A model generated the notes under the pieces. It ran no database searches. It saw only the letters and a list, made by a program, of their open reading frames with translations, and was not told where the DNA came from. From assembly GCA_005191425.1 (NCBI GenBank), contig SUPR01000121.1:1-8818 (forward strand): a stretch of DNA of 8,818 bases, in the 5' to 3' direction. Position numbers and translations under genes: made by a program. Origin of the DNA: Candidatus Helarchaeota ASGARD archaeon Hel_GB_B. Lineage in GTDB: Archaea; Asgardarchaeota; Lokiarchaeia; Helarchaeales; HEL-GB-B. This document shows positions 1 through 2,477 of this stretch, piece after piece (within the stretch, counting starts at the first letter, position 1; each line of letters opens with the position of its first letter).

Positions 1-896
1 TTAAATAAATTTGTGTGTCTAGCCACAAGGCCTGAGTTATGTAAAACATAAACCGAATAATTTTGTTCATAATAATTATCATAAACATCAATTGATACCC
101 AGCCAGTAGAAGGTATCCCCCAGTAATTTCCACTTCCATCGCAGTGTTCAAGTGTATATGGAGCAGGTTGTCCATAACTAGCATAAATCGTCCAAGTAGA
201 TGAAAGATTTGTCCAACCACCAGGTTTACCCCAAAGCGCACTATTATCACATTCATGACGATAAACTTCGCCATTATTACGAAGTACAAAGCAAAATGAA
301 TCATTCCAATCAACTGCAATGGACACGAAGGATGATTCTCCACCATTTAATGGATATGGCGATGTTATAGAAATTGGATTGGAGCTCCGAACCCAAAAAC
401 CTGGGTTTGGCCAACCAGGATCTTTTGAAATTCTGTATACATCCCCATTAGCATTTAATACATATAAATATTTGTTATTAACATCTATAGATTTCCATCC
501 ATTTGATTTAAATGGTAAGTTTACTTGTAATTTCGTCCAAGTGGGACTTGACCATGAAATATTTTTATGTCTCCAAATTTGTCCATCACTGGTCAAAACA
601 TAAGAATAAACATAGTCAACAGCAGTCGAAACAAACTCATAGCCGGATGGAGGATTCCCTTTTATATTCCAAGAATTTCCTAAATTACTTTGAAATACAG
701 ATGAATTTATTTCTAATGCATAAACATTTAAATCATTTGATGATGAAGTAAAAAGATCTGGTGAATTGGTATAATATTTCTCATTAACTTTTCTTGTAGA
801 TATGTTAATATTTAAAAAACTAGCGATAAAAATTGAAAATGTTAATATTAATATAGTTAAAAACGAAATTTTCTTCTTAATTTTGTTAATTTTCAT
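1..896 (-). CDS. Secreted or membrane-anchored beta-propeller repeat protein (3'-partial, runs off the window; absent from the ORF track)
   Basis: Manual translation gives 298 codons with no stop from ATG 896 (alternative in-frame ATG 905; AAAGGA at 911-906) to position 1. N-terminus MKINKIKKKISFLTILILTFSIFIASFLN is a basic-then-hydrophobic signal/anchor. Four repeats: FVSTAVDYVYSYVLTSDGQIWRH, WKSIDVNNKYLYVLNANGDVYRI, FVSIAVDWNDSFCFVLRNNGEVYRH, WVSIDVYDNYYEQNYSVYVLHNSGLVARH. The propeller fold is inferred from this repeat pattern. Confidence 0.85.
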   Translation of the reverse strand, partial: MKINKIKKKISFLTILILTFSIFIASFLNINISTRKVNEKYYTNSPDLFTSSSNDLNVYALEINSSVFQSNLGNSWNIKGNPPSGYEFVSTAVDYVYSYVLTSDGQIWRHKNISWSSPTWTKLQVNLPFKSNGWKSIDVNNKYLYVLNANGDVYRISKDPGWPNPGFWVRSSNPISITSPYPLNGGESSFVSIAVDWNDSFCFVLRNNGEVYRHECDNSALWGKPGGWTNLSSTWTIYASYGQPAPYTLEHCDGSGNYWGIPSTGWVSIDVYDNYYEQNYSVYVLHNSGLVARHTNLF

Positions 897-1050
897 AAAT
901 ACCATTCCTTTAACAAAATCCAACTTATTATTGAATACCAGATAAATAGGATATATTGGTATATTTTAAAAATGTATATATTTACTTTTTTTTAAAAATG
1001 AGATTCTTTAAATTATTAAAGATATTTTTTAATATTTTTCGATTTAAAAG

Positions 1051-1070
1051 TAGAAATTAAAAAATCATCA
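1051..1070 (+). repeat. Dispersed intergenic repeat, copy 1 (TAGAAATTAAAAAATCATCA)
   Basis: Identical to 2836-2856 apart from one inserted G in that copy. Similarity continues loosely downstream (ATTTTA..ATGA). Confidence 0.6.
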
Positions 1071-1230
1071 TATTTTATCAATGAATTTTAGTAATATTTA
1101 CTAATAATTTATTTAGTTATAATACACTTAAAATTAAATCAATGTCAAATTGAAGGAAAAATTTGCTGAGAAAAATAAATAATATGTAGTATAGTAATTT
1201 AATAATTAATATGTAATTCAAAAACAATCT

Positions 1231-1235
1231 GGTGA
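1231..1235 (+). promoter_or_regulatory. Archaeal-type Shine-Dalgarno GGTGA for the small ORF
   Basis: GGTGA lies 7 nt before TTG 1243. The same motif lies 8 nt before the Fe-S protein ATG (6890-6886, minus strand). Confidence 0.6.
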
Positions 1236-1242
1236 AATATAT

Positions 1243-1344
1243 TTGAAGGACGAAGATGAATTAAAAAAGAAAACAGAGTTAACTGATGAAGAAGTCGACA
1301 AAATACTGGAAGAATATGAATGGATTCTCAGTGGGTCTTACTGA
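1243..1344 (+). CDS. Small acidic protein, 33 aa (MKDEDELKKKTELTDEEVDKILEEYEWILSGSY); possible extension to 1362 by UGA readthrough
   Basis: TTG start with a well-spaced GGTGA. The GAA/GAT-rich codon pattern stands out from the AT-rich flanks. 12 D/E and 5 K in 33 residues. Ends in TGA 1342-1344, followed in frame by GGT AAA GGA ATG TGT TAA. Confidence 0.65.
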   Translation: MKDEDELKKKTELTDEEVDKILEEYEWILSGSY

Positions 1345-1384
1345 GGTAAAGGAATGTGTTAAAAATAATTAAATTAAATTGAAA

Positions 1385-1454
1385 TTTCGGCAGGTCCTAT
1401 TATAGAAACTTTAGTTAATAGGATTTAAATCGAATATGCAATCGATTGCCGAAA
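1385..1454 (+). other. Predicted structured RNA/DNA element (three-way junction) 3' of the small ORF
   Basis: P1 TTTCGGCA(1385-1392)/TGCCGAAA(1447-1454); P2 GTCCTATTA(1394-1402)/TAATAGGAT(1416-1424), with one G-U pair on the + strand; P3 ATCGA(1429-1433)/TCGAT(1442-1446). Paired by eye, no folding energy computed. Confidence 0.55.
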
Positions 1455-1497
1455 AAAAAATATTTCATAATAAAATTAAACAAATATTTAACAATAT

Positions 1498-1529
1498 ATT
1501 TTTAAATCATCTAATTTTTAAATCATCTA
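1498..1529. repeat. Perfect tandem direct repeat, 2 x 16 bp (ATTTTTAAATCATCTA)
   Basis: Copies at 1498-1513 and 1514-1529, read directly. Confidence 0.85.
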
Positions 1530-1691
1530 TCCTTTTTACTATTTTTTAATTTATTTAGCCCCCATATTTATAAATACAAAATATTGGTCTGTTTAAAAAA
1601 TAAATAATTGATTATTATGGATACTTAAAGTCTATTTTTAACATAATTTTGTTTAATTAAATTAGCTAATAATGCAATTTATATCATAACT

Positions 1692-2477
1692 TTAAAATGA
1701 CATTCCCATTCTAGCAAGAACTCCGCCGTCAACACAAATTATTTGACCAGTAATGTATGATGATGCATTTGACGCAAGAAAAACTATTACTCCTTTAATA
1801 TCATCTTCATTTCCGACTCTTTTCAATGGTGTAGCTTTTTTTATTACTCTACCAAAATTTTGGATAAAAAATTTACTCATTCCAGATGGAAACCAGGATA
1901 ACGCAATTCCATTAACTCGAATATTATATTTTGCCCATTCTATAGCTAGTTGTTGGGTAAGTCCAACTACTCCAGCTTTAGAGCTTGCATATCCGATAGC
2001 ACCCCATTCTGCACCTCTAAACGCCCATAATGATGTTATATTAATGATGTTTCCTTGTTTTTGAGAAATCATTTGTTTACCTACTTCTCGAGAAACTAAA
2101 AATGTTCCTGTTAAATTAGTTTGTATTACTTTACTCCAATTATCAAGTGTCATTTCCTCGCTAGGAGACCCCCATGTTATCCCAGCATTATTTACTAAAA
2201 TATCGATCTTTCCAAATTCGTCTACTGATTTTTTTACCATATTAATTACTTGAGATTCATTTCCTACATCGCATTTAATTCCTATACATCTAACACCGAG
2301 TTTCTCGATCTCCGCTGCAGTATCTTCTAATGACCCATGTTTTCCCCTACCAGATATTATTATATCCGCACCAACCTCTGCTAAAGCTTTAGCCATCCAA
2401 ACACCAATTCCTGCAGCCCCGCCAGTAATTAATGCAACCTTATTTTTTAAATTTATTAACTCCAAAATTCGTGTCAT
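1692..2477 (-). CDS. Classical short-chain dehydrogenase/reductase, gluconate 5-dehydrogenase-like subfamily
   Basis: TGGAAGIG nucleotide-binding motif, NNAG, catalytic YASSK, and GITWGSPSEEM resembling the GATWGAP signature of the Ga5DH-like group. The basic SGRGK after beta-2 suggests NADP(H). GTTGAT SD-like sequence upstream. Substrate cannot be assigned. Confidence 0.93.
   Translation of the reverse strand: MTRILELINLKNKVALITGGAAGIGVWMAKALAEVGADIIISGRGKHGSLEDTAAEIEKLGVRCIGIKCDVGNESQVINMVKKSVDEFGKIDILVNNAGITWGSPSEEMTLDNWSKVIQTNLTGTFLVSREVGKQMISQKQGNIINITSLWAFRGAEWGAIGYASSKAGVVGLTQQLAIEWAKYNIRVNGIALSWFPSGMSKFFIQNFGRVIKKATPLKRVGNEDDIKGVIVFLASNASSYITGQIICVDGGVLARMGMSF

Follow-up and report, generated by a model that had tools for sequence, protein, structure and literature searches.

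A short gene at positions 1243-1362 of the stretch of DNA analysed here (the window, a whole 8.8-kb contig) very probably encodes a genuine selenoprotein of 39 residues, in which the UGA at codon 34 would be read as selenocysteine (Sec) under the direction of a three-armed RNA element in its 3' region. The comparisons described below document conservation of the UGA, selection on the coding frame beyond it, Sec machinery and further selenoprotein genes in the same genome, a covarying structure with SECIS architecture, and a second TGA-containing gene with the same type of element. From these we infer that the inserted residue is Sec, and that an element without the AUGA motif would be sufficient for its insertion.

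The locus and its reading frame

The window (contig C27) belongs to a 3.5-Mb MAG with 28% GC. The host is an Asgard archaeon whose SECIS elements are eukaryote-like and not of methanococcal type. The gene is found in a 770-nt intergenic region of 15% GC which is flanked by two minus-strand genes and contains a single island of higher GC. The island consists, in order, of a TTG-started frame that runs to the TGA (1243-1344), five further codons, a TAA (1360-1362), a spacer and a structured segment (Table 1), with GC fractions of 0.34 for the ORF, 0.40 for the extension, 0.04 for the spacer and 0.34 for the structure; the intergenic DNA on either side has 0.15. Several particulars of the preliminary description were borne out: the frame reads TAC TGA GGT AAA GGA ATG TGT TAA, giving ...WILSGSY-U-GKGMC, all five larger genes of the window end in TAA, the extension is richer in GC than its intergenic surroundings, and the structure starts exactly 23 nt past the TAA.

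Taken alone, these features of the locus are within chance. TGA is the stop codon of 16% of 1668 long ORFs in the host genome, and at least five open codons follow 60% of all TGA triplets, so that the significance of the UGA extension comes only from the comparative data. A Shine-Dalgarno-like motif of the kind seen here precedes ∼25% of the long ORFs. An alternative ORF in the +2 frame (1286-1372) was rejected, being closed in the orthologue.

DNA runs from public sediment and vent samples contain near-identical copies of the contig, with no variants in the ORF, the extension or the element; no RNA run is among the sequencing runs listed with the locus. The run contigs differ from the window in the flanks only, at 1152, 1213, 1451, 1492 and 1498-1513 (two SNPs upstream, an extra A in an A-run, a C>T and a 16-nt deletion), and these differences are too few to weigh.

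Table 1. Features of the small gene and its 3' element, together with the related and canonical elements used for comparison. Positions without a contig name refer to the window; G000 is the host genome and G001 the other genome of the genus.
Feature	Position	Strand	Remarks
Shine-Dalgarno-like GGTGA	1231..1235	+	7 nt 5' of the TTG start; GGTG or AGGT at the equivalent place in all orthologues
Putative small selenoprotein gene, 39 codons + stop (TTG start, UGA codon 34, TAA stop)	1243..1362	+	four distinct equal-length orthologues
In-frame UGA, proposed selenocysteine codon 34	1342..1344	+	TGA invariant in all orthologues
Five-codon extension G-K-G-M-C (GGT AAA GGA ATG TGT)	1345..1359	+	Gly35, Gly37 and Cys39 invariant
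AT-rich spacer	1363..1385	+	length kept (23, 23, 23, 20 nt), sequence not
Three-way-junction SECIS-like element without AUGA/GA core	1386..1453	+	fold, covariation, genome descriptor scan
HesB-like gene + element, window genome	G000:C139:55770-56210	-	L091/L093
HesB-like gene + element, same-genus genome	G001:C7:1337-1767	+	L090/L092
Canonical SECIS, host genome	G000 C26:47758-47847	-	three-way junction
Canonical SECIS, host genome	G000 C41:5753-5842; C41:6349-6438; C122:8602-8691		three-way junctions
Canonical SECIS, host genome	G000 C128:7628-7717	-	three-way junction
Canonical SECIS, host genome	G000 C167:2147-2236; C167:2660-2749		three-way junctions

Conservation of the frame beyond the UGA

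A DNA search of 40 relatives gave one real match, on contig C240 of the only other genome of the genus (G001). The orthologue there has the corresponding 39-codon frame with TGA, the extension GKGSC and TAA. Two further products of 33 residues, both cut at the same place, came from an exhaustive HMM search that covered 1.84 billion representative proteins. Reading the corresponding metagenome contigs past the TGA gives GKGSC-TGA in one lineage (L099) and GRGAC-TAA in the other (L100-L102). Four distinct orthologues are thus available, from the window, the same-genus MAG and two metagenome lineages, all of them close relatives. Each is exactly 39 codons long and has TGA as codon 34, after which come G-[K/R]-G-x-C and a stop; W27, I28, G31, S32, Y33, U34, G35, G37 and C39 are invariant. 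The preliminary description had proposed that homologues with TAA or TAG at codon 34 would speak against recoding; none of the four distinct homologues has either.

The pattern of substitution is that of a coding sequence on both sides of the UGA. Pairwise differences at first, second and third codon positions number 26/11/32 in codons 1-12, 29/3/76 in codons 13-33 and 8/6/23 in codons 35-39, and the codon differences in the extension are mostly synonymous (16 against 8 non-synonymous). Gly35 is encoded by GGT or GGA, Gly37 by GGA, GGC or GGG, and Cys39 by TGT or TGC. Identity between the two genomes of the genus is 13-17/20 up to position 1366, 4/20 in the spacer, and higher again over the structure; the fall, from 16/20 to 4/20, comes right after the TAA and not after the TGA. 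These comparisons indicate that the frame is under protein-level selection beyond the UGA, and hence that the UGA is translated.

A different reading takes UGA34 as a true stop, so that the gene would make a 33-residue peptide and the conserved 18 nt would join the junction element in an RNA signal of the 3' UTR. Such a signal could, for example, be a terminator, a stability element or a SECIS-derived element that binds a protein. The commonness of TGA as a stop in this genome fits such a reading, as do the 33-residue product that gene callers give, cut at the TGA, and the lack of a kink-turn core in the element (see below). However, an RNA signal would not be expected to concentrate the differences of the 15-nt extension at third positions, with Gly, Gly and Cys each kept through synonymous codons. 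Nor does it account for a second stop in frame in 4/4 orthologues, for a spacer whose sequence is unconserved, or for a TGA that is constant where the terminal stop varies (TAA in three, TGA in one). We therefore regard termination at UGA34 as very improbable, and continue with the reading in which the frame extends to codon 39.

One orthologue has a feature of its own. At L099:3100-3120 the terminal stop is itself a TGA; it follows the presumed Sec TGA by 18 nt and precedes the element by 23 nt. Reading it in this way would give two UGAs in one tiny gene different fates; the terminal UGA may be too close to the element for recoding.

The family is rare, being represented by the two genomes of the genus and the two metagenome lineages. 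Neither 400 Asgard genomes nor the GTDB species representatives yielded a further genome with it, and no homologue with Cys at the UGA column was found in those 400 genomes or in the 1.84 billion representative proteins. A word-indexed protein search returned solely the window's own 33-aa product, and a back-translated scan of metagenome contigs gave no relatives. A DNA pattern scan of metagenome contigs gave eight matches, all due to chance, and a pattern scan of GTDB genome contigs recovered the same-genus MAG alone.

The Sec machinery and a SECIS-like element without the AUGA core

The host genome encodes SepSecS (482 bits) and, directly upstream of it, EFsec (276 bits), both over cut-off, and a PSTK-like gene on the same contig (156 bits, below the curated cut-off). 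Its SelD gene, also over cut-off, has an in-frame TGA and would itself contain Sec. One or two in-frame TGAs are present in 4/11 flpD/vhuD genes, and SECIS elements lie 3' of the hdrA genes and of the split vhuU (C128). Of the Sec machinery named in the preliminary description, the genome thus has EFsec, SepSecS, PSTK-like and Sec-containing SelD genes; tRNA-Sec was not detected by Rfam or ARAGORN. An 89-nt 'tRNA-???' called by ARAGORN (G000:C139:704-792; L070:205-293) was considered as tRNA-Sec and rejected, as it is an ordinary tRNA (Rfam tRNA, 58 bits) whose anticodon region carries an 18-nt insert, an intron.

At least seven canonical SECIS elements were located in the host genome, three with hdrA, three with vhuD and one with vhuU. 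All seven combine the published AUGA...GA (or AA/UA) core with a three-way junction. The closing helix, which lies at the stop codon or adjoins it, leads into a 5' strand carrying AUGA; this is followed by hairpin 1 (7-11 bp, with a 10-14-nt A-rich loop), GA, a second hairpin (5-7 bp, with a loop ending in GC[GA]A) and the return strand of the closing helix. This accessory second hairpin is not described in PMC4989117 or PMC11227280. A naive genome scan for AUGA hairpins was too noisy to use, and MAFFT alignments of the canonical elements were not structure-consistent.

The element behind the small gene has the same three arms. Its closing helix (1386-1391/1448-1453) encloses hairpin 1 (1392-1402/1416-1426), with a loop at 1403-1415 that is A-rich at its start and ends in AG, and hairpin 2 (1428-1433/1442-1447), with the loop AUAUGCAA at 1434-1441. 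The fold has a z of -2.6. Across the orthologous elements the helix of hairpin 1 is 10-11 bp long and carries the loops UAGAAACUUUAGU, UGUAAAAUCGAAA, UAAAAAUAUUAGA and UAAAAAUCGUAGA. At the junction, the strands of the window element are A/U and those of the orthologues GA, AA or AU against UU, AC or UA. AUGA on the 5' side of the upper helix and GA/AA on its 3' side are absent, and tandem G.A pairs are impossible; a kink-turn cannot form because the junction strands are only 1-3 nt long. The comparison proposed in the preliminary description, with the 3' regions of the genome's known selenoprotein genes, shows that the structure shares the three-armed architecture of the hdrA, vhuD and vhuU elements and lacks their AUGA/GA core.

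Compensatory changes are seen in all three helices. In an alignment of seven sequences, made up of five small-ORF elements plus two paralogues, 91.8% of cells pair, nine pairs are changed on both sides and 0/500 shuffles reach the covariation score; the alignment is model-fitted, which favours the structure. A descriptor of the architecture was then scanned over both strands of the whole 3.5-Mb genome, with matches ranked by the energy of the imposed fold and the reversed genome as the null. Eight matches fell at or below -13.9 kcal/mol. Apart from the window element (rank 2, -21.9 kcal/mol) they are the seven canonical SECIS elements; the next real match was at -8.7 and the best reversed-genome match at -11.3. 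A covariance model made from the window and same-genus small-ORF elements alone (R2) retrieves canonical SECIS elements at 24, 19, 19 and 16 bits in a 29-kb search (E 2e-4 to 6e-3 for the first three), handling the AUGA strand as an insertion. In the reverse test, a model from a single canonical SECIS scored the window element at 8.6 bits (E 4.6), which is not significant. Rfam gave no match on window positions 900-1750, and the euryarchaeal GAA_A-bulge SECIS motif is absent from the element sequence.

The AUGA...GA/AA core is regarded as the conserved heart of the Asgard and eukaryotic SECIS and is described for nearly all such signals (PMC4989117, PMC11227280). The core variation described in PMC11227280 comprises AUGA_AA and GUGA_GA, with no core-less element. 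Compared with the type I lokiSECIS or Asgard eSECIS-like structures (Mariotti et al. 2016, PMC4989117; Huang, Xiao & Zhang 2024, PMC11227280), the window type shares the position in the 3' UTR near the stop, the lower (closing) helix and the general proportions of the upper part (10-11 bp and an 11-13-nt loop, A-rich at its start and ending in AG, against an upper helix of ∼9 bp and an apical loop of ∼11 nt); it also shares, with those of the host genome, the second hairpin with its GC[GA]A loop. Unlike them, it has neither AUGA nor GA/AA flanking the upper helix, and whilst the canonical elements start at or next to the stop codon, it is not anchored there and stands 20-23 nt behind it, a spacer absent from the other SECIS elements.

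The same type of element occurs once more in the genus. Searches with R2 and with R3 gave one further strong match in each of the two genomes (45-77 bits), and no other strong match in 149 further genomes of the class (R2) or three genomes of the order (R3); weak R2 matches in other genera were dismissed, as they lie inside an Orc1/Cdc6-like coding region. Both of the strong matches begin at the stop codon of a HesB/IscA-like gene of ∼120 codons, with an in-frame TGA at a conserved Cys column. The gene matches PF01521 (E 2e-4) and NF041239, 'CC/Se motif (seleno)protein' (E 1.5e-3), in both cases below cut-off. Its homologues in G005, G154 and G157, three further Asgard genomes, have TGA in the same column, a C-terminal Cys and a SECIS of the AUGA type. 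This family keeps its Sec codon across Asgard lineages, and here the core-less element thus stands in place of a canonical SECIS, which is the best available argument that the variant works. The copy in the window genome may be decaying or a pseudogene: it also contains an in-frame TAA, and its hairpin 2 has an insertion, a duplicated GCAAUC.

The sequence-level paralogy of the two elements bears on a further reading of the small gene, namely that the locus is non-functional, being the decaying 3' end of a duplicated selenoprotein gene (for example a HesB-like one) or a non-coding RNA. The great rarity of the family, which no further genome in our searches contains, would suit such an origin. 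Yet the frame is intact and of equal length in four lineages with a strong third-position bias, the start codon and Shine-Dalgarno motif are conserved, all three helices have been maintained by compensatory change, and by profile comparison the peptide bears no likeness to the HesB-like family. Its derivation from a HesB-like gene through an internal deletion was likewise rejected at the protein level (hhalign probability 0.3%). We give a non-functional locus very little credence.

Coding selection past the UGA shows translation and not the identity of the inserted residue. UGA34 might be translated by programmed read-through, with a near-cognate tRNA (Trp, Cys or Arg) and perhaps stimulated by the structure, and the missing SECIS core is compatible with this. 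However, the element falls in the architectural class of the genome's seven SECIS elements, with nothing else in 3.5 Mb, and it is common to the HesB-like gene, where the TGA stands on a conserved Cys/Sec column. If any residue would serve, a sense codon should have replaced the TGA in at least one of the four lineages, given how extensively the synonymous sites have changed. The Sec...Cys motif also fits selenoprotein chemistry. Read-through of this kind is, in our judgement, improbable.

Under the preferred reading, insertion of Sec, UGA34 would be decoded by Sec-tRNA(Sec) delivered by EFsec and directed by the junction element, which starts 41 nt downstream (38 nt in one lineage), and translation would then terminate at codon 40, six codons past the UGA. 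The spacer of 20-23 nt may allow the element to stay folded during decoding of the UGA, since here the UGA is only 18 nt from the stop, and lies far upstream of it for the genome's other elements. As to the signal itself, the balance of the evidence tips modestly towards Sec insertion in this Asgard lineage proceeding without the AUGA/GA kink-turn, a tight junction with an A-rich apical loop and a second hairpin (GC[GA]A) being enough and serving two genes, one of which represents a selenoprotein family that has no known relatives.

The predicted product, its relation to known systems and its meaning

The peptide consists of an initial M, a Lys/Glu-rich tail, an amphipathic helix at about residues 15-29 and the sequence W-I-x-x-G-S-Y-Sec-G-[K/R]-G-x-C. 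An AlphaFold2 model from the four-sequence alignment, which we use descriptively only, shows residues 15-29 as a helix and the tail as disordered (mean pLDDT 65.5); with low confidence, the product is modelled as one helix and a flexible tail S-G-S-Y-U-G-K-G-x-C. The Gly-rich Sec...Cys tail could form a redox (selenenylsulfide) or metal-binding centre.

Pfam and NCBIfam, including the small or C-terminal-Sec families VhuU, UGSC and UXX-star, gave no match better than E 0.045. A marginal match (E 2e-4 per genome) aligns peptide residues 13-34 with a middle segment, ...LTEEEVRKIIEKYDIIGVSHC-YCRH, which has Cys at the Sec column. The segment belongs to a ∼365-aa protein (L019:973-2064, minus strand) with orthologues in genus g10 (L020-L023, L026, L027), composed of a weak TrmB-like wHTH at the N-terminus, an unannotated middle and two 4Fe-4S motifs at the C-terminus. 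This marginal likeness to a wHTH/ferredoxin protein is a lead only.

Gene neighbours vary among the four loci and flanking genes are only partly conserved. Upstream there is either a secreted repeat protein or a giant Big_13 protein, and downstream an LLM oxidoreductase (two loci), an SDR (window) or small ORFs (fourth locus); nothing in these four neighbourhoods points to a partner for the small gene. The upstream gene of the window (3-923, minus strand) is divergently transcribed and has a counterpart beside the small gene in the same-genus genome (L010:2151-3176, plus strand); its product has a signal peptide and repeats ending in W/Y-rich motifs. The preliminary idea of a RiPP precursor finds no support here, since no maturase, protease or transporter is conserved with the peptide gene at the four loci and the flanking genes are conserved only in part.

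A close parallel in gene form is VhuU, the very small C-terminal piece that carries the Sec of the [NiFeSe] hydrogenase large subunit in Methanococcus and in Asgard archaea. It too is encoded by a tiny archaeal ORF of its own, which contains one UGA and has a SECIS on its 3' side, and gene callers routinely miss or truncate it. In contrast to the present gene, which stands alone between unrelated genes and has no sequence similarity to it, VhuU follows vhuA, contains the Ni-site D-x-U-x-x-C-x-x-H and has a canonical AUGA SECIS. The HesB-like or 'CC/Se motif' proteins (PF01521, NF041239) of the same genus share the core-less element, homologous in sequence by both R2 and R3, whereas the proteins are unrelated by profile and the HesB-like element begins at the stop, ∼230 nt from the UGA.

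Animal thioredoxin reductase ends in a Gly-Cys-Sec-Gly tail. Like it, and like the bacterial UXX-star and UGSC proteins, in which Sec stands in a Gly-rich C-terminal tail (PMC13188914), the predicted peptide would have Sec within a flexible, Gly-rich stretch, a few residues short of the C-terminus and with a partner Cys. It differs from UXX-star and UGSC in matching no NCBIfam selenoprotein family, in relying on archaeal and not bacterial decoding, in its U-x4-C spacing and in its single-helix body.

For comparison, a 2024 survey of more than 400 Asgard genomes listed seven selenoprotein families, HesB-like proteins not among them, and found eSECIS-like structures in 85% of the genes (PMC11227280); a 2026 review counts 11 selenoprotein families for all archaea (PMC13188914). 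On the available alignments the gene would be a new family using a known mechanism, and its signal a new variant of a known element, since the peptide matches no Pfam or NCBIfam family and is unrelated to the HesB-like proteins, and since neither a core-less element nor the HesB-like family appears in the 2024 survey. If this is true, it adds a selenoprotein family without Cys relatives, invisible to searches based on homology or on AUGA. It also suggests that such variants may be present in part of the ∼15% of Asgard selenoprotein genes in which no eSECIS-like structure is detectable.

The SECIS variant matters more than the new family. Asgard SECIS elements have been used in arguing the origin of the eukaryotic SECIS and its kink-turn reader, and we know of no SBP2-like reader in Asgard archaea. 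Should the kink-turn be dispensable, the apical loop and the accessory hairpin, and not the kink-turn, would be the likely parts that the Asgard SECIS reader recognises. Natural elements that lack only the kink-turn offer a direct handle on the parts that are recognised.
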